From Obrimoposthia wandeli (Eukaryota), in assembly GCA_977020255.1 (NCBI GenBank), contig CDROCS010003418.1:744001-808000 (forward strand): 64,000 nt of DNA, in the 5' to 3' direction. The notes below the pieces were generated by a model that was given only the letters and a program-made list of their open reading frames with translations, was not told the DNA's origin and did not search any database. The position numbers were made by a program, and so were the translations under genes. Positions 1,177-58,841 of the stretch are shown here, piece after piece; position 1 is the stretch's first letter; each line of letters opens with the position of its first letter.

Positions 1177-1790
1177 TCAGGAGTGCAAAACTTGTTTTAC
1201 AATCCGGTGACGGTGTTGCCGGTGCTGTAGCCGGTGCTGTAGCCAACCCAAATGGCATACGATTGAAACACAATTGTTCTTATTTTGTACTGAAAGCCGT
1301 TTGGCCTGAGACTCATTCACTAGATCTACCCGATAAGAAGCTTGTCCAATATCTAATGTCGTAAATATTTTAGCATCACCTAGACAATCGAACAAGAGTT
1401 GTGGATCCGGTATGGGAAATGTAAACTTCTTGGTTACTGCATTCAAATTGTATTGTCTGGCTTCTTCACAATGACCAAAGGCGAGTTCCAAGGACTTTCA
1501 CAACGCCTAATTACGTTTACTTTGAGTAACCTTTCAATCATTTCATCCACTTGGTTTTCTAAATGCATCGGTTGTAGTCTAGGATTTTGGCAAATATGAT
1601 CGGAAATAGTCTCAATCTTATGAGAGACAATTTTGGTATATCCTAGATCAAATTTAGAACACATAAATATTTTCCCAAATTCCTTAATATAATGTCCTAG
1701 AATTGAGTCTCTATCGCATTTTAAAGAATTACATATTTTATCTGCTCTTTCTTTCGAGGAAAACGTTTTCATCATGCAAGACGAGTCCAA
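1177..1790 (-). pseudogene. pol: Gypsy LTR-retrotransposon reverse transcriptase, frameshifted and truncated
   Basis: ORFs 1443-1790 and 1177-1491 contain HKIET, VIRRCESPWNSPLVIVKKPD, FPIPDPQLLFD and IFTTLDIGQASY, which are typical Ty3/Gypsy RT motifs. Confidence 0.9.
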
Positions 1791-2145
1791 ATAACATACT
1801 TCTTGCAGCTTTATCTCAAATGTTTTTATTGTATCGATTCCACCAATAAATTCTGGTTAAATGTCTTCTACAACAATTATTTCTAAAACATTCTCCTTTT
1901 TATTCCATAACACTTTAGTATTAAACCTACCTAAGTGCTAATGATGATTATTCGAAAAACTCCACTCAGATATAAATTACTCTGTCTCATTTTGTGACAT
2001 CCTACTGTCTTCCAACAATCTTTACTCATTACAGTAACTGATGCTCCGGAGTCTCACAACATTTTCACATCTACATCATCAATCTTCATTATACTCCATT
2101 CACGACCATCCTTCTTCATATACATCTTTTCATTCCGCTTTGGTT

Positions 2146-3305
2146 CTATATGCTCGATCCCACCGACGAAATGTGAGCAATGGGACCGCTCACGTTTCCC
2201 TGATTAACATCATGTATTATCATGTCGTCATTATTACAGTCTTTTAAATATTGATTATTTTCTTTCACTTCTTCTGTTATACAAAGTACTCTTGAAGTTT
2301 GATGTGGGTTCTTTAAAATATAGCAGCTGTTGAAATTGTGACCTTTTTTTCTGCAAATCAAACATCTGTCATTGATAGGACATTGATTTCGGAAATGACC
2401 TTTCTCACCACAACAAAAACATGGTCCTAACTGAAGGTCTTCACTTTTTGTGACATGCAGTTTTTTAGCTAATTTATATTTTCTTTTAGCTAATTGTTTT
2501 AAGAAAAACCTTGGCATTGGTCTTCTATTATTTTGATTTTGGGCGTCTCTATTTATGTATATTTTTTCTTCATTAACATAATTTCTTTGTTCCTGATGTA
2601 CTGATACTGGCTTCTTCGTATTGTTTGAGAAATGATGGTTGTCAGGACGGTTGAATTCTCTTTTTACTGTATTCGCATACGTAATATGAATTTGTGCAAT
2701 CACGGTATTCTGTTTCTCGATTTTGCTGTACACCTTTGCCAACGCCTCTATTTTTTCTTTTGGCATCTTTGGTTTTAATAAGAACTGCTCCTTTAGTTTT
2801 TCACTTCTTACTCTATCTTTAATGAAATCGTCAGTCAGCTCATCTTTGCTAACATTATTTTTATCATAGCCTCAACGAGGTTTTTCACTCTAATGCTGAA
2901 CGCTAAGAAACGCTCGCTTTCTACTTGCTTCACTTTTGCAAGTTCGCAAACTTTGTCAACTATGGATTTTCTTTGTATGAAATTTTCTTCAAACAATGTT
3001 TTGATTTCGATATCTGAATTTAACCTTTCACTGGCATATTTCCATAATAATTCAGCTTCTTCGGTCAACAGCAACTCAAATGCATCCCCAATATTAATCT
3101 GAGTTGTGTCAACCCATTCCTCATCCTTTAAACATTGTGTACCTTTCTTTGAACTCATTTCATCGTATCTTCTTATGTTATACTGGAACATCATTCTTTG
3201 TTCTTTAGCATAGTATCGAGGATATTCTTCTTTGATTGACTTCTCGTTACTACATTTATTTAGGCGTAGTCGCCAGTTATGTTTTCTGTCGTAGACATAA
3301 TTCAA
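2146..3305 (-). pseudogene. gag: Gypsy gag with CCHC zinc knuckles
   Basis: CFCCGEKGHFRNQC and CLICRKKGHNFNSC knuckles in 2146-2766; gag-like upstream ORF 2835-3305; lies upstream of the RT on the same strand. Confidence 0.8.
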
Positions 3306-3399
3306 GACTTATATTTCACAACACAATTTATATTCTAGATATTAAATATCAGTTTTTTAAACAAATTATGGAAAGTAAGATAATTCCGGTTTCTGATTA

Positions 3400-8169: not shown

Positions 8170-8556
8170 CTTTGGTTATCTTGAGTCTGATAATAAGGTT
8201 TACATATATTGACATGAACTGCTTGTATTTTTCCTTTTTAACTAGAGATTTTACTTTTAAATTTGGTTCAATTTTGATTATTTCATATGGTCCTTCGTAT
8301 GGTTTATAGAACTTTTTTGTTAAATCTATTTGATGTAATTGTACGTGAATTAATATTTTGTCGCCCTTCTGAAATCTATGTTGTTTACCAGTTTTATCGT
8401 AATTTTCCTCATAGATTCTAAGTATTGAATTAGTTTTTATAAGTATTTTTAAAGGAAATATAGTAATATAAATGCATATCCTTATGCATATTTGTTATAA
8501 ATGGTTTGAAGGATTTCAAAAGATCAAAATACTAAGGTATTGTATTAACTGAAAAC
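8170..8556 (-). pseudogene. Gypsy integrase C-terminal (GPY/F) remnant
   Basis: Minus strand reads YEENYDKTGKQHRFQKGDKILI and, after a frameshift, KFYKPYEGPYEIIKIEP. Confidence 0.7.
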
Positions 8557-8807
8557 CTTGTTTCTGAAATGTTTCGATAATTATAGAAGGGACATGATCC
8601 GAATGGTTATGATTGAGATATCTTGTTTCTGACTATATTTCGATGATTATAGAAGGGACATGATCCGAATTGTTATGATTGAGATATCTTGTTTCTGACT
8701 ATATTTCGATGATTATAGAAGGGACATGATCCGAATTGTTATAATTGAGATATCTTGTTTCTGACTATATTTCGATGATTATAGAAGGGACATGATCCAA
8801 ATTGTTA
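8557..8807. repeat. 66-bp tandem repeat, ~3.8 near-identical copies
   Basis: ttatagaagggacatgatcc recurs at 8581, 8647, 8713 and 8779 with near-identical intervening sequence. Confidence 0.95.
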
Positions 8808-8949
8808 ATTAATAATTTGTCTATTTTTTATTGTGTCGTTTTGCTGCTAATCTGCAGTTTTAAGTAGCAACGAATGTCAAATGTCAGCAAGACAGGGATC
8901 AATACCAAATCCGATTTCTGGCAGTGATTCTGGGCAGAGTGACAAATCT

Positions 8950-9530
8950 GCACTCACACACATGCACGCAGAAAATCAATAGTTTGATTGGAGAGGTGGT
9001 AGGAGCTGTTCTGTGTTCTGGATCGGTTCAAGTCGCTGCTGTTGTTGTTGCTGACGGCGAGATAGTGGTAGGGCAGCAACAGATATAGCATCGCCAAAAG
9101 AGAGGGACGCTGAGAGACCGGCCGAGTGAGATGGGGTGGCTCTATGCATCACAGCATTGATAAGGACTGAGATAGTCCTATAAACTGCAAAGTGCATGCT
9201 GCAGCTGTGGCATAGAAGGAGACTGACAGACCGCGGTGTGTGTCCGTGCGAAAGACAGCACACTGGCACAAATGCTGACGATATTGACGACGCCGATGAT
9301 GATGTTGCTGTTCAGCCCGCCGATTAGGATGACGGGGAATACGGGGAAGGATGGCGGAGAAGGATGGTGGAGGAGCCGGACCAGACTTGTCGCTGGCCGA
9401 GAAAGGGCAGATCGTCGCCTCATCTGCTACTATTGCTGGGCGGAAAAACATTATGTTTCATCTTTTTATCATGCCGCCTTCCTGATGAGCCTGGCAAGGC
9501 GAAACGGGACCACCCCGTCGGAGGCTGAAT
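8950..9530 (+). repeat. GC-rich dispersed unit ending in a hammerhead ribozyme (copy 1)
   Basis: Homologous to the minus strand of 34925-35570: aaaatcaat, ttggag, Asp-rich tract (DIDDADDDVA vs NIDDDDDVA), then the ribozyme. Confidence 0.65.
9476..9525 (+). ncRNA. Type I hammerhead ribozyme
   Basis: Core CUGAUGA 9482-9488 and GAAA 9501-9504; stem II gcct/aggc with ggca loop; stem III acggg/cccgt with accac loop; GUC cleavage triplet 9517-9519; stem I gccttc/ggaggc. Confidence 0.92.
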
Positions 9531-9797
9531 TTGAAAACCTCCCTAATTGTGGGCATTTTAGATAAATATTAAATGTCAATTTAAATTGACTTAAATTAAT
9601 TAATTTTAATTAATTACCCAACATATTTATTGTAACAAGAGTCATTTCAGACATAATTTTTAATTCTAGGTTATTAAGAAAATTAACTAATTTTTTGTAA
9701 TTAAAAAATAAATCCTTTTAATGCTAATGAATGTTGAATTTTTTTCCACATTCAAATAATGTAATCAGTTTTAATTCTAAATACATTTAATACATAG

Positions 9798-14070: not shown

Positions 14071-14268
14071 GTCCTTCAAATTGAAGAAATACAATATATA
14101 AAAATTATTATTTTCAACCAATAAGACATGCAGATAAACAATTCTTCTATTTAAAGGAATAAATTCAATAAAAAATAATATTTTCATTTTATAAGATAAG
14201 ACCATGTGTGCATATATTTTAGTATATAAGCTCTTACTTTTTTCATTTCAATTCCCGAATTTGAAATT

Positions 14269-14400
14269 ATGAATTTGGTAAGAACATTATATATTTTTAT
14301 TATTCATTATTATTTTATTTTTTTAGAATACTTGTATCTGGTTTCCCGCATACTGTGGTGTTTCAGCTGTGGTGTTTCAGTTGGAGAGTGTTTCGTAATA
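14269..14400 (+). pseudogene. Truncated copy of the spliced HRDHL-family gene
   Basis: ATG AAT TTG, intron gtaag..ttag 14278-14326, exon NTCIWFPAYCGVSA matching ITCILFPAYCGASA at 264. Confidence 0.65.
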
Positions 14401-14457
14401 AAATATTTTAAGTAACTTTGTCTTATAAACATTATCCCAATACTAATATTTTTTAAT

Positions 14458-15108
14458 ATGGACTTAAAGAATAATTCGGTTTTTCAAATTGTAGGGCCTA
14501 GTGGTAGTGGGAAAACTCTTTTTATTTGCAAGTTAGTACAAAATAATAAATACTTTAGATTTAAGTTTAATGAGATATATTGGTATCAGGGTGGAGATGG
14601 AGAAACAGGTTTAACCAGTAAAGAGTTTAAGAAAATCAAAAATATAAAAGTCATTAAGGGATTCAATGATAATTGGTCTGAGCGATTACAGCGACATGAT
14701 GTTATTGTAATTGATGACTTGAATCAAGAAGCAAATAAAGAGAATGAATTCAATAATTTATTCACTAAAATAGCCAGACATCGTGAAGTAACTGTTATTT
14801 TCATCACGCAAAATCTATTTCACCAAGGTGGAAATCATAGAACTCGTAATTTAAATGTAAATTACCTTGTTCTCTTTAAGAATCCGCGTGACCAGACTGT
14901 TATTGATTTTGTTGCAAGACAAGCTTACCCGAATAATATAAATTACCTGATTGAAGCATTTCAAGATGCTAATACCATTCCTCACGGGTATATTTTAATT
15001 GATTTTACCCAAGATTATCCTGATGAGCTAAGAGTTAAATCTGATATATTCAACCCATCCGGTATTATCATCTATAAACAATCAAAGAAACCGGTTTCCC
15101 GAAGATGA
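14458..15108 (+). CDS. Polinton A32/FtsK-like DNA packaging ATPase (open, 216 aa)
   Basis: Walker A GPSGSGKT, Walker B VIVIDD, IFITQNLF, RNLNVNYLVLFKNPRD. Confidence 0.95.
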   Translation: MDLKNNSVFQIVGPSGSGKTLFICKLVQNNKYFRFKFNEIYWYQGGDGETGLTSKEFKKIKNIKVIKGFNDNWSERLQRHDVIVIDDLNQEANKENEFNNLFTKIARHREVTVIFITQNLFHQGGNHRTRNLNVNYLVLFKNPRDQTVIDFVARQAYPNNINYLIEAFQDANTIPHGYILIDFTQDYPDELRVKSDIFNPSGIIIYKQSKKPVSRR

Positions 15109-15520
15109 GTTTTAAAAAGGAAGTTATTAAATCTGAAGTCAAGAAATTGATTAAATCGGTTTTAAGAGCAAGGAAAATGGTTGCTAAACAATCAAATAAT
15201 AAGAAATCTAGGAGTATTCCATATTTCAATTCTCTTATGGAGGCGCCCGCTATTCGACGTCTGACTATTCTTAAATCATTTCCTACTTTTGTAATATATG
15301 ATTTACTTAATATGGTACAGAAAATAGTTTCCTGTAAGGTATCCGTTAAGATTAAAATGAATCGGCATAAGAAACCTCTTCATACCTTAAGCTAAAACAC
15401 AAGCCGTGAAACGTAAGTTGCTGTATAAGCAAAGCAGATGATTTTTATGATTTCTAGAACTGATTGTTAGCTCAATAGTTGGTGCACTCGCTAGCAGATT
15501 AATAAAATGATGATTATAAA
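15105..15520 (+). pseudogene. Basic Polinton ORF of unknown function
   Basis: Start overlaps the ATPase stop (ATGA); ORF 15105-15395 followed by a frameshifted continuation. Confidence 0.5.
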
Positions 15521-15607
15521 CATGAATTTTAATCAATAAAATGAATTTTATGGGATTGCTTCCAACTATTCCTAAAATAAATATAAACATCAGATCAAAT
15601 TGTTGTA

Positions 15608-16584
15608 ATGGAGAAAGTATGGTTCGATCCAAGTCATCCCTTTGGTTACACCGGAGTTTCAAAATTGGCAAGTGAGGCAAGGAAAGGGAAAAGGAAACTC
15701 AGACGTGGTTGAACAAGCAATTAGCTTACAGCTTAAACAAACCGATGAGACGCCGGTTTCCAACGAGATCATACAGGACGAGCGGCCCGAATTATTTATG
15801 ACAAGCTGATTTGATGGAAATGATACCATATGCGAGTATTAACGATGGATATAGATATATATTTAACTTGTGTTGATGTCTTTAGTAGATTTGCACGAGC
15901 TATACCCCTAAAGTCTAAGTCCGCTAATGATTAAAGAAATAAAACCAATAAATTTCCAAACGGATTTTTACGGAAAGGAATTTTATAATCAACATGTTGG
16001 AGCTTTATTTAAAAAACATAATATTACTCATTACTCAGTGTTTACCCAATATAAAGCCGCCTTAGTTGAACGTTTTAATCGGACATTGAGAGATCGATTA
16101 AAAAAGTATTTCACTAAGCAGGGAAATAAGATCTGGATCGACGTTTTACCGAATATAATTAATGCATATAACCATAGCGAACTTTAGATAGAAAGATACC
16201 TGCTGATGTTACGGATGAGATGCTATGGAAATTTGGCAACGCCGTAATCAGAGTCAAGTTGTTAAGAAACCCAAGTATATTGGTGATTATGTACGTATAT
16301 CTCAAATTAGTACTACTCCTTTTATAAAGAATTTCAAAGATAATTGGAGTGATGAAGTATTTCGTATAATTAAAATCGATAGAAAACATGCTCCGGTAAT
16401 GTATTTCATTGATGATGAAACCAATAATGAAATCAGTGGCAAATCTTATAATGAAGAATTACAAGTCTTGCCCGAGAAACCGAATGTATATAGAATTCAG
16501 GAAATCTTGAAGACAAAAGGGTGGGGAAAGCATAAACAATATCAAGTTAAGTGGCATGATATAGCGAACCTAGTTGGATATTAG
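15608..16584 (+). pseudogene. Polinton retroviral-type integrase with C-terminal chromodomain
   Basis: VWFDPSHPFGYTG, NYL*QADLMEM, QTD..GKEFYN, ALVERFNRTLR, NAYNHS, and YRIQEILKTKG..QYQVKW; frameshifts present. Confidence 0.92.
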
Positions 16585-16597
16585 CTTCTTAAATAGA

Positions 16598-17621
16598 ATG
16601 AATTCGATGTATGTTGTATTACAGAGTAACGGATCTCCATTAACTCAACCTAATAACAGTGCTAATCATTTTAGTATTGTTTATCAGAGCTCAATCAATT
16701 TACCAGGTCAATGGGAGGCTGCCCTTACTGAATTTTCTTTCAATTACTCGCCTCTATCAATTCAAAATGGAACTGAGATTGATTATATTACTTAACAAGA
16801 AGTTGAGAAAGTAACTAATGTTACTTTACTATTTTATATGAGGCAAATAGATTTGAGCCGTATTAAGGCGGGAGATGATTTCACAATATTTTTAAATAAA
16901 GAGAATCGAATTCAAATTGCAGGACAAGGAGATAATTTTGAAATAGTTTTTAATGATGAGATTATTGCGGAACGATATGGATTTCCGTCTAAACCTAATG
17001 AAGGAAAATTTTATGTTTCAGGAATTATGGATAATCATATTAATTACCCAATACTTACTTTCAAGATAAAAAACAATATCACTAAGCGCAAGAGGAAAAT
17101 ATATTCAGTTCCCAATTATTTTCTTTTTCCGGATAGTGAAAGCATGTGTAAACGTTTTAAAACCATGTTACCAGATGTATTTGAAAACTTTAAACTAGTC
17201 AATAAATTGATTCAATTCAAATTGAAAGCATATATTGAAAAAGTTATCATGGATAAAACATTAGCCACAATTATTGGTTTTGATGAAAATGAATTTGAAA
17301 ATGAAAATATTGTTTTCAAAGCAAAGATTATTCCTAAAATAACTAATGCATATAATCAGATTTATATCTACACTAGTATTACTGAACCAATATTCGTAGG
17401 AGGAACTAAACTCCCATTAATAAAAGCAATTGGGGTTCAGCAGGAAAGAGCACAAGTATAGGGATATCATACATATTCCAATTGAGAATCCAATGTATAT
17501 TCCAGTGAGTTATTCTTCTATAAACTATATTGAAGTTAACATACGCAATGATTCCGGAAGATTAATTACATTTGCTTACGGTGCTAAAACAAGTTTAACA
17601 ATTCATTTTCGTAAATTATGA
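16598..17621 (+). pseudogene. Polinton minor capsid (penton-like) protein
   Basis: MYVVLQSNGS..NNSANHF..LPGQWEAALTEF at the N-terminus; YIYTSITEPIFVGGTKLPL and IEVNIRNDSG..SLTIHFRK at the C-terminus; split by a stop and a frameshift. Confidence 0.85.
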
Positions 17622-17980
17622 TTGATTAAAGTATAATCAATGCGTATAGTAAACCTATGCAAGGAGGCGATTTGCCTTATTTTGTCGGGAAACAGTATGG
17701 ATCCGGATGGATGAAGGTTTTAGGACGTTTTGCTTTCCCTCTACTCCAACGACTTGGGAAATTTATAGGTAATGCCGGATTAAAATACTTGTCCAGTGAT
17801 GAGAAATTACTTCTAACGCTCAAACGTGCAGCCATTGACCAGGTGAATGAAATTTTGCCCAATCTAGCTAAATATTTGATAAAGAAAACTGAAAAGGAAA
17901 GTGGTTATAAACGTAAGAAAACTTCTAAAGTCTTTGGTATAAACAAACGTCTGAAACCAGGAAAAACAATTTTTAAGTAA
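17618..17980 (+). CDS. Small Gly-rich/amphipathic Polinton protein between the capsid genes
   Basis: MQGGDLPYFVGKQYGSGWMKVLGRFAFPLLQRLG with a basic tail; homolog at 56670-57030. Confidence 0.7.
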
Positions 17981-19211
17981 TGAGTTGTGCTAAAACTGAA
18001 TTGTGTATATTCGATAAACCTATACCTCAGGTGGTGTTTGATAGTGCTTGTTTTGAGGAAATTTTCCCAATAAATACGGTTAGTGGTGCATCGTATCCTG
18101 ATTTGGAATTAAATATAAATGGATCCAATACCCAATATCTTGATTTTAATAAATAGTTTATTGCTTGTTAAATTGAAAGTTACAAAGGAAGGAGGAGGTG
18201 ATCTGGATGATGCTACGGATATCAAATCAGCTAATTTCATGTTTCATACTCTTTTCGAGGACGTGATTCTCAGTCTGAATAATGTGAAAGTTGAGGGTAA
18301 TAATACGAGTTACAACCATACAGCGATGATTGAAACATTACTGAATTACGGTAATGATACTAAATTGATTAATCTTAATCCAATTAGTTTTGATGATAGT
18401 AAGAAAGAAGAAAAGCTTGGATTGCAAAATCAAAAGTATTATCACTTTGCAAGAGTCTCCATTTGAATTTCTTTAAGCAACCAAAGTATCTTTTACCTGG
18501 TGTAAGTGCACATATTCGAATGAAGAGAAATTCAGTAGGTTATAGTGTTGTTTGCGCTGATACTATTAAATCAGCAATTGAGATTATGGAAGCAAAGTTA
18601 CTGATTCGTAGAGTAAAGATGGAACCATCCGTACTCTTTTGGCATATAATAGGGTTAGAGAAGCAGAATGCATGTTATCCTATACGAAAAACTAATCTTG
18701 ATTCTCATGCTATCCCTACAGGAGCACTCTCTTATTACAAGGATCAGGTTTTCGGGGATATGCAGCTCCCAAACTTTGTTTTAATTGCTTTCCAAAAAAC
18801 ACTTCCACCTATGGAGGTGACTCTAAAAATGAGGTTTCTCAATTTGGACATATGAATGTGAATTCAATCAAACTAGCACGAAATATCGATTATCAAGAAA
18901 CTTATACGAATAACTTTGAAATTAATGATAATGTGTTTTCTTACGTGTAATCTTTAATTAGAAATCTTGGTCACTTGGATAAGGATGCTAATGTTAGTAT
19001 TTCAATGACCGATTTTAAGGACAAGTATACGCTGTTCGCATTTGTTCTCTCTCCTGATTTCAATATTAATCAAACTCAAATTCCTAAACAGGGAAATTTG
19101 AAAGTAGAAATCAAGTTTACGAAACCATTTGAACAACCTACGAATATTATAATCTATGGAGTATTTGATTCTGAGGTGCAAATTACCAAGGCGGGTACCG
19201 TACTAGTCTAA
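17980..19211 (+). pseudogene. Polinton major capsid protein (double jelly-roll type)
   Basis: KTELCIFDKP, HTLFEDVILSLNN, IETLLNYG, KYLLPGVS, LPNFVLIAF, YTLFAFVLSPD, GNLKVEIKF, IIIYGVFD; several frameshifts. Confidence 0.9.
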
Positions 19212-19239
19212 ACAGAATGACGATAGCAAGAAAACATAA

Positions 19240-19645
19240 ATGAAGTAAATCAGTTTGAATTAATTAATTAATATATAATCTAGTTCGCTCAAGATAACAA
19301 AAAGAGGGAGAAAACTACTCGGTTCGCGTTTCAATGGAGTCTACAGTCTCGATTATATACCCTCATTAACTCGCCCAGGTGGATATGTGATCAATACACA
19401 TTCATCTAATTTGCGTAGAGAACATTGGATTGCAACACATGTTAAAGAAAAATAAATATTTGTTTTTGACCCCTATGGGGTATATTACCCATTTAAATTA
19501 GTATCTACAGTACTTGACTCTGGAAAGAAAGTATATTTTAGTAAGAAACATTATCAGAATGCTTATTAAGAGAAACATTATTATAAGAAAAATTATTATC
19601 ATGTGGACAACTCTGTCTATTATGGTTAAAGCATAAACAATTTTA
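19240..19645 (+). pseudogene. Adenain-like cysteine protease
   Basis: FNGVYSLDYIP, YVINTHSSN..EHWIA (catalytic His), FDPYG, HYQN, and SCGQLCL (catalytic Cys). Confidence 0.85.
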
Positions 19646-20343
19646 AATAAAACGAATTGATTAAAATTGATTAAAATTGTTTGTTTATTTTATTGATTTT
19701 GAAACTTTCAACGGGTCAAATAATGAATTCCTTATGAAGGAGTTGTGCATAATGAATGTGGATAATATTTTATTTCCTGAGCATTATGTTTTTAAAATGC
19801 TTCCTATATGGTCTATAATGAGTGGAAAATCTAGAAAATAAATAGATATCTCATTAAGCATCACCATCGAATAAATCTAGCTGATGGGGATAGTTATTTT
19901 AGGATAAACGAAATAACTGAAAAAATTAAAAGTCAATGTAATGTATCCAAAACAATTTTCTTTGTTTTGGATGAATATGATGGTGCTAAAATAAAGACAA
20001 TCAATAAATATTTTCCCGAATTTAGACTCGTAAATTACTCTAAAACGTTGAAACAGCTATCCCCCATTCCCCCAACTATTAGTTGCCCATATATTGAGCA
20101 CGGGGAGCATTATGCATACAAGAAATGCTTTGCGATTAGTTTGGATTATTTAAACTACTTACAATAGAAAAGCAATATTAAAGAAAAATATGCTACTTAC
20201 AAGTAAAATCAGCATTTTCTATTAAAATTTACTGATTGGATTGAGAGTTTTGAATCAATATCATTAGATAAATACTACTTTGAAAATAGTATATAATGAA
20301 GCAGGATTAATTTAATAAATCCCTTTTATAAACGATATCGAGA

Positions 20344-20885
20344 ATGGTAAGAATTTTGGTTTATTTTTGATTATTTTTTAGAACTGTAACATAAACAAGC
20401 AACTATGCTATAAAGTAAGGCATGTGGATTGCCGAAGAAGAATGGAGGAGTACTTCAAGAAGAAATTCAACGGACATACATATTATATATGTTCAATATG
20501 TCAAACGAGTTAGGAAGTGGATTGGATCAGCTTCTGCGATAGACATCGAGACCATTTAGCCCACTTTCAGAAGATTGGGAAAATGGCGATTTTCAAGAAA
20601 TGTCCACAAAGCAGTATGTCTTTTTATGGACAATCTACTGGAGCTCCTTCTACCGCCTCAACATCAGCTGCTGCTGCTCCTGCTTTACCATTAGCTGTTG
20701 GTATGCCTATGGCGGTGTCTACACCATTAGGTAGCACCGTCGGTGGTTCTGGTCCACCTATGCCTAGTTTAGCGGGGATGTCTACATCCGCCGGTGTTAG
20801 GAAGCGGAATATGCCGCTAGTTGGAGGAGACTTAGGGAAGCAGGGAAGAATGGGGAATGTGGTTAAGAAGTGGGGCTTGAATTGA
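20344..20885 (+). pseudogene. Spliced HRDHL-family gene with an internal TAG at 20511-20513
   Basis: ATG, then intron 20347-20381, then NCNINKQLCYKVRHVDCRRRMEEYFKKKFNGHTYYICSICQTS*EVDWISFCDRHRDHLAHFQ and an Ala/Pro/Ser-rich tail. Confidence 0.7.
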
Positions 20886-20889
20886 GTTT

Positions 20890-23412
20890 ATTGCTCGCTT
20901 TCATTAGATGTGAGAAATAGGGATTTGGTAAATATCATAGTCCTGCAGGATCTTCTGGATGCCATAAGAGAAGTTGTAAATCAGTTTGAAAGCTGTAAAA
21001 TTCAGTTTGGGGCTAAGGTACAGTTCTCGAATGAGACTGATACTAAGCAATGTGTTGTTTCCAATAAAGCAATCCCTTTTTTCTCCATCGTTTCTTAAAG
21101 ATGGATCCGCGTTACTGGCTTCGAAACTCGAGCAGTATTCAGAGCGCGGTAGTAACTGGTCTGTGGATCAGTTACTGGAGATTTACTTCACGGTTACCAA
21201 GACTAGAGAAATTAATTACCTGCAAGGGAATTCATATATTCTTTCTCCGGAAGGTATTGTTAATGCGGTAATCAATGTCAGAAATATAGGGAATAATTTA
21301 TGTTTCATGTTTAGTATTTTAGCTATTTTGAAACGTAATTTATTCCCTAGAAATAGACATAGGCTTCAAGCGTATGAACCCAAACCCCTGAAATTAGGCA
21401 ATATTCCGCGCTTTGAGAGTGAAAACTCGGAACTGTCTATCAATGTTTTCACCTACAATTATATAGGGAATTTTCCGCTTGGAACGGAAATTTATAAAAA
21501 TCCATATATTGATATGATTTCCCGTAGTAAGAATTCAGGAGGCCAGCTCATAAATCTAATTCTTTTGGAGGATAATGATAGGTTTCATTATGTCGCAGTT
21601 CCTGACTTGAATAGGCTTTTAAATGTTCGTCGGAGTTTTTCACCCATTATCCATTGTAAGTGGTGCCATAAGTGTTTGCACGGTTTTAGGTGCACCGAAT
21701 CATTTGATAAGCAAGTTCCACTATGCACCGGGAATATCGAGAATACTACGCTGTATACAATGCCTGAGGAGAAACATATACAGTTTATGGATTTTTCAAA
21801 AACTATTTCTCCTCTGTATGTTATATATGCTGATTTCGAGGCGTTGTTTACCCCTCATGGCATTCATCATCAGCAGCATCTCCCAATATCAGCGGGTATG
21901 CTGTTATCATCAATAAGAGCTGGTCCAATGCAAGATTACTCTTTTTTCACCGGGGAAAAATGTGTAGTGGATTTTCTGAAGAATATCGAGACCATCGCAA
22001 AGGAGACTGTTCTTCCGTGGTATAATCAAACAAGTTCTGTGTCTTGGTGGATTCGATACTCAGGTGATCTGCAATTTGCATTATCACTTGAAGACGACAA
22101 AAGAGCCAGGGACGAAATTGAACATCACAATGAAGAATGTAACAATGAAGAACTACAAACAGTTATGCGGCAGCTAACATCAGTGCAGCTGGCTAGTTAC
22201 AATGCTGCAACTACTTGTTATCTCTGCAAGAAACGTTGCGTTGGAAAGGTTAGGTTTCACGACCATATAAGCAGTGAATTCTTAGGTGCTGCTCACTCTA
22301 GGTGTAATTTATCCCGCTGGATAAGTCGTGTTCTCCCAGTAGTTTTCCATAACCTGAGAGGATATGACATGCATCATATTCTGAAACATACCTTGAGCAA
22401 ATTCCTGCACTGGTCCATTGGTATCATTCCCCAAACTAGCGAGAAGTTCCAGGCAATTATTGTGCGCTTCGACGGGATTATTGTCAAATTCATCGTTTCG
22501 CTGCAGTTCCTGAATGCCAGCCTCGACCAGCTAGTGAAGAATGTTGCAGATGTTCCTATTACGAAGACAGTATTCCCGGCTCATCTCATAGGAGAAAAAG
22601 GGATATTTCCATACGACATGGCATATCAGAGACTGCTTTCAGAAACATTAGCAGTCTACCGCCTAAATGGAAATCAGAAATCACAGACGTCCAATATGAA
22701 CTCACGAAGAAGGTGTGACTCGAGATGGGGTGTACATCACTTTGGGATTATATGATCCATTACCTGAAGCTGGATGTCTAACGTTTCGCTGATGTCTTCT
22801 CAGCATTCCGGTAAAAGGCGATTGATGAAGACGGGCTGGGGTCTCTGAACTTCTTCTCATTACCAGGTTAGTAATTATGATTTACTTAAAGTTTTTCATC
22901 AAGTTTTTGAAATTTAATTGATTTAGTTAAAGTTTTCAATAATTAAGTATTCACAATTTAATTGATTAAAGTTTTTTCATTAAAATTTCTAAATTTAATT
23001 CATTTTATCATTACAAGTATCAGTTTTGCTAGCGCCTTCAAGTCGCTTCTCTTAATATCGTACAGTGCAAGCGGACAATCAACTAAAAGGGTGGAGCTGA
23101 TTCAAGATCCTGAAATGCACAAGCTGTTTACGCACGTAATATGGAGTGGGATAACTTTGTAAACATGCATAAAGTGGATTTATCAGACGGGAATTTCATT
23201 CTGTATATAGACATCAATAATTTGTATGGGTGATCCATGTCCCAATATCTTCCAGTAGGTAATTTTCAGTGGGTATTAGATCAGACTGAATTAGGGGAGA
23301 TAATTAGCTATTTTGGGAAAGTAGATTTATCGTGTAGCAAGTATGCTCATTTACTTGAAATAGATTTAAGCATTCTTAATCATTTACATGATTTCATCGA
23401 CGATCTCCCTTT
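20890..23412 (+). pseudogene. Protein-primed family B DNA polymerase with an endonuclease VII-like Zn domain, 3' truncated
   Basis: YADFEAL (exo I), CYLCKK..FHDHISSEFLGAAHSRCNL, VFHNLRGYDMH (exo II), KGIFPYD, YLKLDV, and YIDINNLYG*SMSQYLP (motif A). Confidence 0.93.
22030..22159 (+). repeat. 130-bp segment identical except one base to 26719-26848
   Basis: Direct comparison shows only gtcttggtgg vs gtctcggtgg differs; flanked by caaaca at 22027-22032 and 22156-22161. Confidence 0.95.
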
Positions 23413-25450: not shown

Positions 25451-26460
25451 TTCCAAATCAGTGCAGAAAACAAGTAGATGCTATGTTTTGATTTGAAGTG
25501 AATATAACATCGATTTCATGATAATCTTACTCGCTTTACACATTGTTTTTATTTACTAAGCTTACAACGTACACTCCGTTATAATGTACTTAAATTCTGG
25601 TGCTTTAGAGTACCCTAGAGTGGGTTTTTATCTGCTTCTTTCTTCTGTTTCTACATATTTTTTAAAGCTTTTCTTCATTGACGTTTATCGTTTTCTTATT
25701 GAAAGTGACAATTTGATCATACAAATTTTTTCTCAATCTTTTTAAATTGCATATTCAAAGTGACCTCGGATTTCGTTTACAGGACGATTACGTGCCATTG
25801 TACCCCTAAGTCCAAGTATTGGTATAATTTTTTTTTGTGTGTTGAGTAAATGGGAATACGGAGTTGCATTTGCTAATTACAAATTAATTATATAAATCAC
25901 AATATAGTTTACATTAACTCGCATACAGTCGCCTATCCGTTTTCCTTCTATCTATTCATACTGAATAATACAGAACGAACGTATATCAAGGTTCCAATTG
26001 CCGTAGTCGACTGCAAATCAGCAAAATCCTACAAAATAACGTCAATCCAGCCACACTCAGCCGACAGTTTAGTATTTGGTGAATTGATGAGATTAATCAA
26101 CGAGCTACTTGTTTGCCAGACTTCATAGTCGTGGTCAATCCAAAGCCGTATAGAACACAACATAAGTTTTTGAATAAGTTACGACTCCATAACACACATC
26201 TTCAGACACAGCAACTCCCAAGTACAGAAACAAGGCTCCACAAATGATCACCTTAAGTTTCAGAAGATGGCAACTGAGGTAGGCCACACGTAGAATTCAC
26301 GTTGAGGACCATTCAAAAAAAATGAATTAGGTTTAAAAAGCTATTAGAAACTCCGATTAGAGAGATTTGGAATGAGATCAGTTTGTATGATTTTGAATTA
26401 AACGCCAATTTTAAATTTCGAATTCTTTCCAGTCATTTTAAAACATATATATAAAATCAA

Positions 26461-27303
26461 TTGAAAATTAATAATATGCAAACTTACTTGAATAATTACG
26501 ACATTCGGCAGAATAATGAATTTCAAAATAGGAACTTAATTGTACAATTAAATACTGAAATTGTTTCAAACGAATCACGACAATTGAATGCGGCTCTTCT
26601 GCAACCAAAGAGTGCAACCATGCGCAACAAAATCCCACAGTCAGTGAAGAATAAGGCCATTGTTCTGAAGCGTGATGGGAAAAAGATTTGCCATATAGCA
26701 CGAGAACTCAAGGTCTGTACAAGTTCTGTGTCTCGGTGGATTCGATACTCAGGTGATCTGCAATTTGCATTATCACTTGAAGACGACAAAAGAGCCAGGG
26801 ACGAAATTGAACATCACAATGAAGAATGTAACAATGAAGAACTACAAAAGTATTCGCAGAAAAAAGATGTTCTTATGCCTATAAAATCATCCAACTTGAT
26901 AAAACAGCAACATTTAGAAAGTACTGTTGACAACTATGAACTAAACGCACAAAAACTGACTCAAAAGACGAAAAAACAAGTTAGTGTCGAATCAAAGACA
27001 ATGAAACAGAAGATATGTATGAAAAAAAGTAGAAAAAATAAATGCCAAATTGATCAAATTAGCATTGATTTACAAATAGCTTTTAAACAGACCAAAACAC
27101 AGAGATACCATAATTTAAAAGAAACACTGCCGAATTTTACCAAAGAATTGAAATCGATTACTAAAAAGACTAATCCACGGGATTATGAAACAATAACCTA
27201 TACGGAATTTTGTGAAATTTTCTCGAAACTGAATGATGACAGAAATTCTGAATATAATGATCAATTAATTTCTCACATGTCTGAAAATGTAATCAAGATA
27301 TGA
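26461..27303 (+). CDS. Open 280-aa ORF with a helix-turn-helix of the transposase/CENP-B-psq type
   Basis: PQSVKNKAIVLKRDGKKICHIARELKVCTSSVSRWIR fits an HTH pattern; no catalytic DDE region seen. Confidence 0.55.
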   Translation: MKINNMQTYLNNYDIRQNNEFQNRNLIVQLNTEIVSNESRQLNAALLQPKSATMRNKIPQSVKNKAIVLKRDGKKICHIARELKVCTSSVSRWIRYSGDLQFALSLEDDKRARDEIEHHNEECNNEELQKYSQKKDVLMPIKSSNLIKQQHLESTVDNYELNAQKLTQKTKKQVSVESKTMKQKICMKKSRKNKCQIDQISIDLQIAFKQTKTQRYHNLKETLPNFTKELKSITKKTNPRDYETITYTEFCEIFSKLNDDRNSEYNDQLISHMSENVIKI

Positions 27304-31329: not shown

Positions 31330-32764
31330 GATTTAGTGAAAGTGAATAAACGAATTTTTAGAGAACAATAACATAAACATGATGAGAGCGTAAATGAATA
31401 CGCATATGTTTTGAGAACCTTGGCAGCACGAGCGTATCCAAGAAAGGTGTTGAGAACTCCTGTAGGCGTACCTGTAGCTGAAGATGTACAATTAGTAGAA
31501 GATAATCGGAACCAAGGCTAAATATATTCAGAGGACGGAAAAAAGATATTAAAGTGTTATTGGCAGTATCAGATACAAATGATTCTAACAACACCGTGCG
31601 AAAGGCGAGAGAAATTGAGAAGAATATAAAGAATAATGCAGCGATAGCAATTTACGCAGTGACGACAAATGATGATGATAAGACAAAAGTTTTGTGAAAA
31701 AGACAGAACCAAGTAATTTTCAAAGTCGGAATTAAGTAAAACATGAGTCTAGATATAGAAATAAATTTAAGAAAAAAGATGAATTTAGTAATAAAAGTAA
31801 AGATAATTTCAGAGGTAGAAAAAGAGATGATTCGAGAGGTAGAAATTATAATGTTTCGTGGAATAGAAATAGATTTAATTCGAATAGAGAAAATTCAGGA
31901 AATCGCCTATCCTGGAGTGGATACGATTGGAATAATAATGTAAACAGGGGAGAATGAAATGACTCTCGATTCAGAAATTATTCAGGAGATGGAGATGGAA
32001 GATTCAATAATCGAGGAAGCGGTTATGAATCGAATTTCCGAAGAAATGATTTTAAAGGACGCTATGACAATAGACAGAATAGTCGTTGAGTACAGTTCGC
32101 AGGCGAACAGAATAAGACAGATATTCGAGGAAGAATATAATGTTATATGTGTAAACAAATGGGTCATTACACGAGAAATTGTACAAGGGGTAAAGAATTC
32201 GATAATGGTAATTTCGGTAATAATAATTTTGGAAATAAATATAGAGGATATAATTCACCCTCACCATTGAATATAAGTGGAAGTTATACTCCACAGCAAT
32301 GGAGAACGAATAATCAGTACGCAGATAGACAACAATCTCCAGGAAGATATAATAATTATGTAGACATACAGCAAGTAGCTGAGAGATATAATATTTCAGG
32401 AGGATATAATAATAATGTCAAAAAGACAAATAGTCGTGAGAGTTCACCGAAACTAAAAGGAAACTTTAGTTACATAAAAAATGACAGCGATATGAATCGC
32501 GAGACAGAGCTTAGATGTGAAATAGATTTTGAAGACAATGATAACAAATTGGAACGAATGTTGGGAATAATTGAAGATTCACAACATACAAAGATGGCAA
32601 ATTCATCTACGTTATCACGTAAAGAAAAAAAGCATCACACTAGAGAAGTGTTTAATGATTTGATTGGCCGAGTATTAGAAGAATACGAAACACCGATAGA
32701 AAAGAGTTGTAACGCAAAACCTATGACTGATAATGTAGAAACAGAGATGGATTCGCAGAAGTAG
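31330..32764 (+). pseudogene. gag: LTR-retrotransposon gag remnant (Gypsy-like)
   Basis: KHDESVNEYAYVLRTLAARAYP and a CYMCKQMGHYTRNC knuckle near 32140; Asn/Arg/Gly-rich linker. Confidence 0.75.
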
Positions 32765-33780: not shown

Positions 33781-34927
33781 TTTAGCGATATTTAGTCAAT
33801 TTTTAATCGATTTAGAATAAAGTTTGAATTTAGATGATAAATAAATTTAAATTTTAGTTTACCATGCATATAAAAGGTGAATTACAATTATTTGTCTCAA
33901 TATAAAATAGTATGAAATTCAAACTATTTTGTAAATTTTTCAAAAGTCTTTCTTTTTAAAATTTAAAAAAATACATTTTGAAAATACATTTTGAAAATGG
34001 TAGAAGAAAATCAATGGTATAATATTTTCCAAAATTTGATAAAAATAATATATTAATTTAAAGAAAAACGGGTATTTGCTTGATCTTTAAATGGTTAAAT
34101 TCTACTCTGAGATATGACTGTTTGTCTAGTAGGGCTAATGTTTTCCCTATCATTATTTATGCTTTGGTTCATATTAGCATATAAATGACTTCCTGACCCA
34201 ATATAAGAACTTTCTCTGTCTTCGTTATTATGATTCATAATTTTCAAATTATTGCATATTGATATTTTTTATAAGATATTATAAGCCTGAGAAAGAGTCA
34301 AATGACGTAATACTTAATGTGTAACCTAGTAAATGTATATTAAGGCTTAAATGATGTAAGAATTTTATACATGTTTAGGATCATATGATATTTTACTGTA
34401 GGTTACGTCATAGTAGTAAAAGATCAATAGGTTTTTTATATTTTATGCTTTTGGGTCATTTCATAATAAACTTCGTACCAATATATGCTTTAGGATCTTT
34501 TCTAATTGGAGTTAGAACTTTATGTAGTTCTTCAAAAATATCAAGTATTCCATTTCCCTTTTGTATACCTTGAATATAAACTATATTATTTTAAATTTTT
34601 TTCTTATTTTTCTTTCTAGTCTTTTTAGTCTTAATTTTCTTATAAAATAATTTAAAATAATTAATGTTTATAGAGAAGAAAATAAAGATACAAACAATAT
34701 TTATTTATTAATTCCATCTAATATTTTCCAAATAGTAGACACCAATCCACTAGACCCGATCTTGTTTCCTCACACTGGTCAAACTGTTAGGATTATAATT
34801 TTAAAAAATAAAATTTAAATTATTTCTTAATTAAGAAATAACGGGAGAAAATTTCCTTAATTAGGGAAATGTTATTTTGGGTAAGTGAAATGCACTTTGG
34901 CATTTTATAATCAGTTTTATTAGTTCA

Positions 34928-34977
34928 GTCCCCGACCGGCTTAACCGGTTTCGCCCTGCCGGGCTCGTCATGGGAAC
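34928..34977 (-). ncRNA. Type I hammerhead ribozyme with a C3-to-A core variant
   Basis: Minus strand: gttccc AUGACGA gccc-ggca-gggc GAAA ccgg-ttaag-ccgg UC ggggac. All three stems pair; the first core base differs from the CUGAnGA consensus. Confidence 0.85.
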
Positions 34978-34983
34978 GGTAAA

Positions 34984-35033
34984 CTTATCTCTGGCTTCGC
35001 AGTGGGTGAAATTCCCGCGAAGTCAGAGATAAG
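34984..35033. other. 17-bp inverted repeat hairpin immediately 5' of hammerhead copy 2
   Basis: cttatctctggcttcgc (34984-35000) pairs with gcgaagtcagagataag (35017-35033), 16 of 17 Watson-Crick. Confidence 0.85.
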
Positions 35034-36299
35034 AAAATAAAAACACTTACCTGGAGGAAGATGCCCAGGATACACAGAACCACCACCCACTCTCAACCAG
35101 TCTCTACCGGACCAACTTCTGCAGCAGATTGTTCATGGGAATCTGACATTTCGGTGAATTACAGACAAGTTTCCAGGTGTCTGTGCCGAAGTCCCACTCT
35201 CCAGTGCTACCATTTCTCCACTATCCTGATGTTGGCCGGATATATTTGATGTCATGCATCAGTCCACAGGGGATTCCAGCGACAGTCGTCATCATCATCG
35301 TCGGCGACATCATCATCGTCATCATCAATATTCTCTTCTACCGATTCTGTCGCCGTGTCGGGTTTTCTCTCTTGCCTTCAGGTGCCGCTAGCAGCTGGGA
35401 CAACTCCATATCATGACAGCGTGTGCAGTCTCTCCAGCTGCGGCAACATATCTCTCTCGGTCTGTGTCTCTATGGCCACAGTTTCTGCAAATCGCCCTCC
35501 AACTGTCTGGATGAAAATTGATTTTTGTGTGTTTTATGTCTGTCTGTGTTTGTTTGTATATATACAATACCTATAAAAATGGACACAATTTTTCTTACAA
35601 TTTGATTTCAGCAATATATTAAGCGTAAACCACTACAGTTTTTATTGTTTATTGGGAAAACGAAACCCCGCATCTATATTTTTACTATCAAAACTATAGT
35701 TATTGATATCTTGGCACATTTTTATGTTTTATGGCTGCTCACTTCTGGGGAATTTTTTAATTGTTTTGACTCTTTCACCGGGTCAGTCACATCACTCTCT
35801 TGACTACCACCTCATATTTGCAGTTCACAGAGATTTCTGCAGAGATTTTTAGAAAATTACATAAAGCAAATGTGTGAATTATACTTTACTTCCCACCTTA
35901 TATTTTTAGGCTTTTATTTATGTTGTGGAAAACTTGTCAATACAAATTCAAAATATTTCCGGTAAACGTTTTTTGTTAAGTATTGAATAAAGTTGCGGAT
36001 ACTATAAACAGAAGTCAAAAAAAGTCGATTTAGGAATATTGTTATCATATTATTATAACTCAATTACCAAGAATTTAAAAGTGGTATTTCTAATATTTAC
36101 TTTTATAGGACGTTCAGATAGGGGCCTCGTTGAAACTGTAGCACATGGGCCTACAATGTCATAATGTGGCCCTAATACTACGTGAACATATTAAAAGAGT
36201 AAAGAATTCATAAAAGGCTTTAAGTACACAATACAATAATAGAAATTAGGAAGATTTCTGAAGAATATCTGATTATTCTCATAAAAAAACAGCTAATAT

Positions 36300-54192: not shown

Positions 54193-55505
54193 ATTTACCA
54201 CATTTTTACAAAAGTCACTTAGTCCCGCTGGGTAACCTGGAGCATTATTCCAAATTAACAAACTTTTAAATCCAAGACTTTTGAGTAACAGTATTTTTAA
54301 CCTCATCACAGAAACTGTTTGTAAACCAATCTTCGAACAGCGATTTCGTCTTCCAAGCTTTCTTATTCGATCTCCAAAATATTGGTAATGTATGTTTATT
54401 ATACCCTCTAAGAGCACATAAGATCGATAGATAAGCATTTGTTTTAATCTTAGATCACCGGAATCATTACCATCCAAAAGAAATTCATTTGAATTCATTT
54501 TTTTAAATGGGATTTCTATAAAATTATTAAATTTAAATAAACAAATTTTCAAATATTCCAATATTCAAATTTGATAAAAATAAAATATCTTACTAATTAT
54601 AAACCGCAATAAATCTAAAACCGCAATAATCTGGGTATTCGTGTACTCAATATTTTTAAAATAACTATTTTTTTTCAATTCGTGATATATTTTTTCTCCC
54701 GATATTTTATTTAGCATCATTGAGTAGTATGAAAATTAATTTTATAACGGTTTTTTGTAAAGTTATTTACAAAATTATATATTTAGATAAAACTAAATTA
54801 ATAATAATTAGGAATTTTTCAAGACTTTAAATTTTTACGACTATTGAATAAATTAGGTATCATGAATTATATTTTTTTAAGTTTATTTTATTTAGCTTAT
54901 TGAATTTAAATTCAAGATATTTTAATTTCAATTATTAGTTATCAATTATTTCGTATGAACGTTGTTGCTCAACAAAGACTTAACATTTGTACTTTATTTC
55001 GAACCTCAATAATTTTAATGTATATTGTATTACCGAGTAATGGCTCACTTTTAATTCAATTGGATAATACAACAAGTCATTTCAAAATTGATGATCAAAG
55101 TTCAATCAATTTACTAGTGGCTTTGGAAGAAGCTATCACTGAATTAACTTCCAACTATTCTACTCTATCTATTCAAAGTGAGACTACGATTGAATACATT
55201 TTTTTAGATGGAGTAACAGAAGTAGAGCTAAGTTTAGAAAATGGGAAATATTCATTGGTTCCACTTTTTCCTAGTCATGAATCTACAGAATTGGGCAAAA
55301 TCGAATTCAGGTTTTTGTAAAAATTTATAAATTTGAAATAGTTTTTGATTGTGAGAAAATAACTCAGCATCTGAATTTCGAAATGAGACTATTACAATCG
55401 AATCTAATTCATTCGAAATATTGGATGGAACAAAAACGTTTCCATTACTGAATTTTAAATGTAAACGCACTGTTACTCAACATACACTTAAAATCTATAA
55501 TGTTC

Positions 55506-56168
55506 TGTTGGGACCAGAGTTGAAGTACTGTCCATTCAATGTTAAAAATTAGGGAGTTTAAATAAAGTAATGGTCCATTGACAGGATAATTACAAAATCA
55601 AGTTCAAACTATTTTAATGAAAGGTGATTTTAAAATGAATTAATCTACTCGCCGTTTATAACTCGTACTTGATCCTGTCGCGAGTTTGTCCTCTTGTCAT
55701 TTTCTAGTCGGTCTGTTCCTGATTTCTTGCGTAGTCCTCTTCAAGTTTCTTCTCACGGAAAAATTCGTTCTGACAGCTTCTTCGATTTTTCGATTGTCGC
55801 GATTATTGTGAACCCAACCCAGTTAATCCTCGCTTTTAACAAAATTTGTCTGACGAATCAGCGACTAGATTGCTTCTGCTGATTTGCTAGTCCAACTTCT
55901 TCTGCTCCTAGGCTGAGACAAATCTACTTTTTGTTCGTATTGTGGTGTCTCATGTGAACTGTATTTATGCTGTTGAATCAGCAGTCACATGAGATTGATT
56001 AATTTCCATTTTTTGGGAATTCCTAATTTTCATAAATTGTTGCCTTTTTAATAATTTAATTTAATTTAATTTAATCTTCAGGGTTATGAAATGTTATTGA
56101 CCAGGACTATAAATATAGCAAAATATTTAATTATTTTTATTAAATTCGTCCGATTCTGGATCTAAGCA
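55506..56168. mobile_element. LTR-like element, family 2 (copy H), 663 bp, TSD GTTC, inserted in the minor capsid gene
   Basis: TG...CA ends; gttc at 55502-55505 and 56169-56172; removing it restores KIYNVPNEFLFP, matching KIYSVPNYFLFP of copy 1. Confidence 0.8.
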
Positions 56169-57646: not shown

Positions 57647-58841
57647 TGTTGGGTCCGGAATTGTAACACTTCTTAGGAAGCCTTTTGTACATGAATTCTT
57701 TAGTGTGATAGGACTTGTGTTTTCGCTCTATCCTTGTTTGCATAAAAAATATTTGAAGGTTATTTCTTTTGTTGAGACAGATTTCTGAAGGTTACTTATG
57801 TGGTGTGATAATCTATCTATGTTTGGCCAGCTATTAATTTATAACATTTATATGGTTAACTCGGTGAAATCTCAAGTAATGAGAGCTTACCAAAAATTAC
57901 TTAATTGTTTGTTCCTAAAACCAAATGAATTTAATTCGCAAAACGCGTTGTTAATATCAGATATAGATCTTTACAACAAAACACATTTATATAAAAAATT
58001 AAGAATAACAAACTCTTTATCAAAATAAGCAATATTAATACAATAACTTATTAGTTACTACTAGGTAAAATTAACTAAAATACAAAGAATTGTGTGGTCT
58101 AACTCCTACGAGCTAGTCCAGATAGGCCTAGTTCAAATTAATTATCGCCGTTGCAGGCTATCGTTTTTATGGAGATCTTCTTAAGTTTAGAAAAATATAT
58201 AGCCGGTATAGGCTGTAGATTTTAACCATATGTTATTTTATTCAGAAAATGGAACCACGGGGTCGATTAATCAAAAGATGGCATTAGTTTATCAATTCAA
58301 ATATTAACACCTAAATATGAATTCGAGGTTCTTAAAATTAATGTATTAATTCAAATATTAGCACTCGCTGAGGCTTATTTTTGAAAACTGGTGAGCGACG
58401 TTTTCGAGTCTTTGCCGATCTCAGATGTCTTTGTTCGTTGTCAATACGGAATGTCTTCGTTTGTAATCAATCTGAGTTGTCTTCGTCCGTTCAAAAATTG
58501 TGTCAGATTTTCTGCGTCTTCGTTTTCTCATGGTATTCTCAGGGCCAATCACAATTCTTTCTGGTTTTTTTGGGACCAGAATTCTTGCTGCCTCTTGTAT
58601 TTCGTACAAATCCACTTTCGACTCGTGGTGCTTCGGGCGACTCTATTAGTAATAGAGTTATAAGTGATCTAAGGCTAGTTGACACCTCCATTTTAATTAT
58701 GGAGTTAATTGATTTCCCTTTTTGTTATTCCCTTCTTTTATTTAATTTAATTTATTAGATTTTAATATTTAGTATTACAAAATGTCCTTGTAGCCTAATT
58801 ATTTTATTTATTTTTAATTTGTTCATTTCTGGACCTTGGCA
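57647..58841. mobile_element. LTR-like element, family 2 (copy G), 1195 bp, inserted in the major capsid gene
   Basis: Ends tgttgggtcc...ttctggaccttggca match copy H (tgttgggacc...ttctggatctaagca); capsid homology resumes after 58841; TSD degraded (gaag vs tatg). Confidence 0.7.

Follow-up and report, generated by a model that had tools for sequence, protein, structure and literature searches.

The window analysed in this study is a whole stretch of 64,000 nucleotides from Obrimoposthia wandeli (contig CDROCS010003418.1, positions 744,001 to 808,000), and it harbors two solo long terminal repeats (LTRs), each containing a type I hammerhead ribozyme motif antisense to the element. The first motif (9476..9525, + strand) was identified by sequence, structural scan and fold, and its core is complete. 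Helix I pairs GCCTTC with GGAGGC over 6 bp, the core is formed by CTGATGA and GAAA, helix II by GCCT-GGCA-AGGC (4 bp with a GGCA loop) and helix III by CGGG/CCCG (4 bp plus an A-U pair), which corresponds to the type I arrangement of CUGANGA, GAAA and UH with three helices, helix I being open. The triplet GTC (GUC in the RNA) ends at C9519, and the cut is predicted after C9519, 104 nt before the LTR boundary. Additionally, the minimum free energy fold of the 50 nt is the hammerhead fold, with an energy that is unremarkable by itself (z -1.25). Thus, with a full core, three helices and a concordant fold, the original prediction of a canonical type I hammerhead at this site was confirmed.

The LTR around this motif belongs to subfamily A and spans 1131 bp (8493..9623), with the element sense on the - strand and the LTR start at 9623. 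Its TG...CA ends are common to copies elsewhere, it is flanked by a 4-bp TATT target-site duplication (8489..8492 and 9624..9627), and its far end carries tandem repeats of ~66 bp detected by self-BLAST (8557..8807). The second solo LTR, of subfamily B, spans 906 bp with the element sense on the + strand (34785..35690), also ends in TG...CA and is surrounded by a 4-bp AAAC duplication (34781-34784 and 35691-35694). Outside the ribozyme region, the two LTRs do not align to each other. The hammerhead of the B copy (34928..34977, - strand), identified by sequence and structural scan, differs from that of the A copy in its stems in the way that had been claimed from the sequence, and it has a change at core position 3 (34971) that this earlier claim had overlooked. 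Because the base found there is private to this copy among the 30 B-type copies read, the B hammerhead of the window is probably dead. Directly upstream of it lies a long hairpin (34984..35033, - strand; fold of -26.6 kcal/mol). Hairpin-like stretches were also recognized by eye upstream of the hammerhead in subfamilies C and F, and the A copy lacks such a long hairpin.

The structural scan of the window recovered the sites at 9476-9525 (no core mismatch) and 34928-34977 on the - strand (one core mismatch), together with a weak, AT-rich third candidate with a stem III of 2 bp, and none of 10 Markov shuffles of the window contained a site as strong as either of the two. A pseudoknot-type contact is predicted in the A copy (9473..9495, + strand) between GCC immediately before helix I (9473-9475) and the GGC of loop II (9493-9495); across 16 variants, 81% of the cells of this 4-pair helix are paired. 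The GCC is complementary to the loop II GGC in subfamilies other than F, and F is devoid of both. On the other hand, the Rfam search that had been proposed as a check did not recover the motif, with no match at E<=10 over 9476-9525, only Hammerhead_HH9 below gathering on 34928-34977 (20.8 bits versus 52) and, as the best match on subfamily F, Hammerhead_3 at 26.3 bits versus a cut-off of 48.5. Support for the hammerhead call comes from the match to the descriptor, from the number of copies and from the covariation described below, rather than from Rfam.

The remainder of the window contains relics of other mobile DNA. Two decayed Polinton/adintovirus-like regions (14073-22755 and 55018-59967) are 71-77% alike in DNA; the packaging ATPase Pox_A32 is matched at 14416-15108 (E 4e-7), and DNA_pol_B_2 weakly at 20980-22755. 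Other LTR retrotransposons have left remnants at 1443-3308 (-), 32141-32764 (+) and 61492-63852 (+), with zinc-knuckle-like ORFs, a reverse transcriptase (RT) match (E 1e-25) at 61954-62631 and no hammerhead nearby in the window. Moreover, a 130-bp segment of the DNA-polymerase remnant (22030-22159) is 99% identical to 26719-26848, within the ORF 26455-27303 that gave a weak HTH match, and this duplicate is either a recent copy or an assembly artefact.

In the own-genome search (1.35 Gb), the DNA flanking copies A and B returned 2,883 and 2,369 candidates, respectively, and the 40 scored for each revealed a sharp common end past the cut, at 104 nt (A) and 149 nt (B). The motif CTGANGAGNNNGGCANNNCGAAAC has 6,832 exact matches in the genome and none for the reversed control, and a looser hammerhead pattern has 8,109 matches, some counted twice, with 2 for the control. 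Most hammerhead copies are solo or unpaired LTRs. Among ends without a polypurine tract (PPT), a 4-nt duplication was detected in 36 of 76, versus 11 for the control. One LTR of subfamily F (L265:1178-1636) lies ~0.9 kb upstream of the host Mss4 gene (2548), in the same sense as the gene.

Hammerheads paired on the same strand led to the complete element. Eighteen such pairs were fetched and 16 were analysed together, 15 of which proved to be the two LTRs of one ~14-15 kb element, the remaining pair being two unrelated solo LTRs; the other two pairs fetched (C226 and C579) are interrupted by other insertions and have the same orientation. The interior of the element is coding and 12-14 kb long. 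Pfam was run on one element, the proteins of which were matched in 14 further elements, and the order found was a gag-like region with zinc-knuckle-like motifs, a Monjiviricetes fusion glycoprotein, protease, RT, RNase H and integrase, followed by an ORF without family, an RNase T-family exonuclease (E 5e-10) and the 3' LTR. The env product matches PF24664, a chuvirus/gB-like glycoprotein (E 6e-60), and is encoded in the same frame upstream of the protease. The elements display the hallmarks of Ty3/gypsy retrotransposons, with TG...CA LTRs, a short target duplication, a primer site, a purine-rich tract (only modestly so before the 3' LTR) and the order protease-RT-RNase H-integrase. Following the 5' LTR, the primer site corresponds to the 3' end of the tRNA-Trp genes of this genome, with all 18 nt matching in some copies. 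These primer tRNA genes occur in the same genome as a tandem array of ~37 genes with 207-bp spacing (C5734:143176-151119, L379).

In the 15 elements, the LTR pairs are 94-100% alike over the best aligned stretch, which, by the reasoning of LTR dating, points to recent insertion, and amino-acid identity in pol reaches 83-100% among most copies. The element is an abundant and recently mobile gag-env-pol Ty3/gypsy retrotransposon, with the hammerhead as a fixed constituent of its LTR. An identical in-frame stop within env was found in six of 16 copies (L062, L064, L068, L069, L078 and L248) belonging to subfamilies A, B and C. Programmed read-through in env was rejected, since the stop is confined to these six; its sharing suggests an allele without pol that spreads in trans or by recombination.

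As to the orientation, the genes and the primer site lie on the strand opposite to the ribozyme in all 15 full elements, and likewise in the two interrupted ones. The ribozyme is present in both LTRs of 14 of the 15, the exception being C3853, with a core change in one LTR. The distance from the cut to the LTR end, which is the LTR start in the element sense, ranges from 74 to 202 nt with a median of 117 (103 of 126 contexts, those with the end located). The ribozyme region is called U3 by position only, because the transcription start and the poly(A) site could not be placed in the LTR. No conserved peptide was found in the LTR, nor any common ORF on the ribozyme strand upstream of the ribozyme.

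The exonuclease encoded before the 3' LTR is of the DEDDh type, with the catalytic residues D-E-D-H-D complete in 15 of the 19 copies read, and its best PDB matches are SDN1 (E 2e-5) and ISG20 (E 6e-5). It may be a second counter-silencing part of the element. No homologues were found at E<=1e-8 among proteins of 205-655 aa, and the PF00929 search of the genome returned mostly other exonucleases. In another repeat family (L337-L339 and L367-L372; C2698, C422 and C2378), an RNase T-type exonuclease is followed by coding tandem repeats of ~102 bp, with no pol nearby. Furthermore, contigs C253, C506, C1802, C361, C425 and others, some multi-megabase and some with in-frame TGA, contain many uninterrupted RNase T-family genes, and for this reason the assembly probably includes bacterial DNA.

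The conservation of the motif was evaluated by covariation in 16 hand-picked variants, which are related to each other and chosen by motif, and for which the resulting figure is not a probability. Overall, 94.4% of the cells are paired and 11 of the 19 pairs changed on both sides, thus displaying the helix covariation expected of a type I hammerhead; none of 500 shuffles scored as high, and slid controls reached 28-48%. Among 126 distinct hammerhead contexts, one of them a false positive, core variation at the subfamily level is limited to position 7, 111 contexts have GUC as the cleavage triplet, and both the length and the sequence of loop III are variable. Wobble pairs are biased towards the ribozyme strand (G-U 123 versus A-C 19, counted in copies that are not independent events). 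Between variants, the LTR upstream of the ribozyme has an identity of 0.47-0.50, versus 0.49 for shuffles, whereas the ribozyme reaches 0.76 and a short motif downstream of it is partly kept (0.58). From these sequence comparisons, it is concluded that the hammerhead is under ribozyme-type constraint. The compensatory changes between the two copies of the window had been taken as a sign of past selection on the RNA structure. The covariation agrees with selection on the structure, but such selection would not be only past, given that the 94-100% likeness of the LTR pairs means that the family moved recently.

As the variants are related and motif-chosen, a blind check was carried out through an exonuclease query, in which 30 loci were picked, three were dropped (L337-L339, the other repeat without pol nearby) and 27 were kept. 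The ribozyme was found in 19 of the 20 copies with an LTR reaching the site, always antisense, and was deleted in one; among the other loci, the LTR ends before the site in five, four of which are one tandem array, and there is no LTR in two. In subfamily F, the hammerhead of which has 85 exact matches in the genome, the stems are different and loop II is GUAA or AUAA, with place and orientation unchanged. An exonuclease 33-43% alike occurs beyond the boundary, on the opposite strand, in three of 20 loci of this subfamily, and no whole F element was found.

Phylogenetic analysis of RT (33 rows, leaving out one broken copy and containing no named errantivirus) grouped the ribozyme-bearing copies in one clade with a support of 100/100, nested in a broader clade that also contains relatives from databases and another env-bearing family of the same genome. 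This sister family has one ORF of ~5,470 aa with env before pol, its pol is 51% alike to that of the ribozyme-bearing element, and its primer site is a different one, located 8 nt away from the LTR end. At least 137 close copies of it were counted, its LTR pairs are 99.9-100% alike, and it constitutes a young and highly abundant giant gypsy family. The two copies inspected (C2129:165038-187967 and C1996:150282-173805; L381-L383 and L386-L388) are devoid of a hammerhead. Success in this genome therefore does not depend on the motif. The hammerhead is lineage-specific. The closest database proteins (P0013, P0014, P0016 and P0017; 63-66% identity) are encoded on ENA contigs of 14-22 kb. Among metagenome loci with a related pol, the structural scan detected no hammerhead in 80, most of them short; the closest two (L161 and L162) have 58% pol identity and DEDD ORFs, on contigs that end before any LTR. 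In L161 (Ga0209893_1000098), ankyrin repeats and an additional protease extend the gypsy pol, and two exonuclease-like ORFs come after it. The IMG/VR search by protein returned no relative, and that by motif returned 52 stretches, some with hammerheads of their own. The IMG/VR viral contigs L156, L153 and L152 carry two to four hammerheads on one strand within 0.3-2 kb.

In the literature searched, with subscription journals and Repbase largely outside its scope, no ribozyme was found in an autonomous LTR element. Genomic hammerheads are known from non-autonomous retrozymes and Penelope-type elements, where they lie on the copied strand and release the RNA that transposes or make it circular. 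In animals, Penelope-like elements, Terminons and tandem retrozymes are the elements to which type I hammerheads have been assigned (PMC4209133, PMC7229834, 10.64898/2026.07.22.740005, PMC6765202). In LTR architecture, plant LTR retrozymes (Cervera, Urbina and de la Pena 2016, PMC4918200; review PMC7761336) share a hammerhead in each LTR, a primer site, a polypurine tract, 4-bp duplications and Ty3/gypsy-type ends with the present element. However, plant retrozymes are non-coding, 0.6-1 kb long and carry type III motifs, whereas the element described here encodes its own machinery in an interior of 12-14 kb and bears a type I motif. Moreover, in those retrozymes the cut RNA bears the primer site and is the transposition intermediate, in contrast to the ribozyme opposite to the primer-site strand found in 15 of 15 elements. 

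The coding part of the element has known counterparts. GAG-ENV-POL errantiviruses have been described by Chary and Hayashi (eLife, PMC13524379) in Nematoda, Bryozoa and Platyhelminthes, with six families in Schmidtea and up to 215 copies. The element resembles them in the Ty3/gypsy pol, the chuvirus/gB-like env located between gag and pol and the many near-identical copies, whereas the terms ribozyme, hammerhead, exonuclease and antisense do not occur in the main text of that study. In the bdelloid LTR elements Juno and Vesta (Rodriguez et al. 2017, PMC5408684), the 3' LTR is likewise preceded by an accessory ORF for a DEDD exonuclease. However, their ORF3 is DEDDy, and the exonuclease of the present element is DEDDh and ISG20/SDN1-like; neither ribozymes nor hammerheads are mentioned in that paper. 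Burro, a giant gypsy of planarians (Arkhipova and Yushenova 2019, PMC6431247), also has env in frame between gag and pol as one polyprotein. Its ORF of 4,873-5,140 aa is close in size to that of the ribozyme-free sister family, whereas the ribozyme-bearing element has half the size of Burro and a gB-type env match instead of the F-type, and the passages on Burro contain no mention of a ribozyme. Taken together, this is a real ribozyme in a new setting, with firm placement and orientation, and its function is what we infer.

For this function, the proposal with a probability of about one half is that the hammerhead would cut antisense read-through before it reaches the element body, limiting silencing RNA. 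RNA polymerase could read the 3' LTR backwards, from downstream host DNA, from a piRNA-cluster promoter or from a divergent start in the LTR itself, and the backward transcript would then meet the ribozyme ~100-200 nt ahead of the polypurine tract and the coding body, the site in the 3' LTR being the last point before the body is reached. Self-cleavage would leave an uncapped 5'-OH piece, which would be degraded or lead to the end of transcription. As a result, long antisense RNA complementary to exonuclease, pol, env and gag would hardly accumulate, leaving less double-stranded RNA or piRNA precursor for the host, while the genomic RNA of the element, which has only the inactive complement, would stay uncut. 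In fact, a hammerhead cleaves only the strand that bears it, yielding a cyclic phosphate and a 5'-OH (PMC7761336), and therefore the element RNA would be spared and the antisense RNA alone cut. A more ambitious version, tentative and falling short of even odds, is that, in this autonomous and env-bearing lineage resembling endogenous retroviruses, the antisense ribozyme would act in cis as a counter-defence that severs backward host or piRNA-cluster transcripts ahead of the coding body and defeats cluster-trap silencing, paired with an exonuclease of the small-RNA-degrading type.

The folding context bears on how efficiently such a cut may occur. In ViennaRNA folds of the A copy, which are equilibrium models of secondary structure only, with tertiary contacts outside the model, the outer pairs of stem I have probabilities of 0.93-0.99 without upstream flank. 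Adding 20-50 nt upstream together with a short 3' flank lowers these probabilities to ~0.55, at least 20 nt upstream plus 40 nt downstream bring them to 0.05 or less, and with 200 nt upstream they are 0. The loss of stem I in longer contexts suggests that cutting may be weak or confined to a co-transcriptional window. The torpedo exonuclease is not known to act directly on 5'-OH ends, and the removal of a product with such an end would need a kinase step. Reviews describe this exonuclease in connection with poly(A)-site cleavage only. The sequencing runs X1-X4 have a patchy intergenic cover with a depth of ~3-5 and no rise on a host gene, and look like low-pass DNA.

Several alternatives were weighed against cutting of antisense read-through. 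The ribozyme could instead make a product, either by forming the 3' end of a short antisense RNA begun in the LTR or by cleaving a complete antisense transcript in both LTRs to release a ~13 kb unit-length minus RNA, circularisable as a regulator or decoy. The same position in both LTRs would give a precise unit, as in plant retrozymes (PMC4918200). The long hairpin directly upstream in subfamily B would also fit, as would a motif resembling a 5' splice site that lies 79-94 nt upstream in four copies of the B type. However, the upstream LTR, which would be the product, is not conserved and has no common ORF, the minus RNA would lack a usable primer site and the splice-like motif is missing from most subfamilies, making this explanation unlikely. 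A role without catalysis, either structural in the sense RNA or as a promoter motif at the DNA level, or the mere passage of a sequence captured from a Penelope-like element or retrozyme, is regarded as improbable. Stem pairing on one strand mostly entails pairing on the opposite one, the downstream motif is partly kept, the long-context folds disfavour the active fold and the family is young in pol, all of which would agree with it. On the other hand, what stays invariant is the unpaired catalytic core, with position 7 and loop III at liberty to vary, the wobble pairs favour the ribozyme strand, and subfamily F has a hammerhead with different stems at the same place, in an LTR that has otherwise turned over to background.

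Less probable still is that the ribozyme has its main role in the 5' LTR and in solo LTRs, where it would stop divergent transcripts before they enter host DNA and lower host harm or promoter marks, with protection of the body as an incidental effect. This would account for the same sequence facts as the preferred explanation and for the prevalence of solo or unpaired copies, but selection would act on replicating elements, which solo LTRs presumably are not, and a benefit in the host flank would be a weak force compared with escape from silencing. That the cut would allow an antisense ORF to be translated independently of a cap, a function shown for type I hammerheads in the 5' UTRs of fungal and plant RNA viruses (PMC13725137), is very improbable, because in that precedent the ribozyme precedes the ORF on the coding strand, whereas in the 15 elements no ATG ORF of at least 40 aa (unspliced) is common to the subfamilies within 4.5 kb downstream on the ribozyme strand. 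Finally, the motif had been placed in a Penelope-like or retrozyme context. The type I topology is typical of both (PMC4209133 and PMC7229834), including a helix I of 6 bp and a helix II of 4 bp within the repeats of Penelope-like elements, Terminons and animal non-LTR retrozymes. This assignment is hardly credible, however, since both copies of the window lie in true LTRs with TG...CA ends and 4-bp duplications, and the pairs enclose a primer site and a Ty3/gypsy gag-env-pol on the opposite strand. Neither Penelope RT nor GIY-YIG was encountered, as the pol that Pfam revealed in the scanned element is exclusively of the Ty3 type, and there is no pseudo-LTR, no Penelope-type ORF between the pairs and no short tandem units. 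Non-LTR retrozymes consist of tandem units of 150-450 nt without LTR, primer site or PPT, whereas the smallest same-strand spacing among the first 100 matches listed is 808 nt. With its full helix III of 4-5 bp, the motif could act as a monomer.

Cutting of antisense read-through thus remains the preferred explanation of the hammerhead, and its meaning follows from the strand. Lying on the antisense strand of an autonomous LTR element, the hammerhead cannot serve to release the RNA that transposes or to make it circular, and its maintenance there therefore points to another use, most simply a defence against antisense silencing. For this question the genome of O. wandeli supplies its own control, namely the related env-bearing family devoid of the hammerhead. 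Additionally, the ~7,000 sites are predicted to cut host pre-mRNAs wherever the LTR lies backwards in an intron and, if the counter-defence proposal is true, thousands of solo LTRs would be strand-specific RNA cutters distributed across the host genome.
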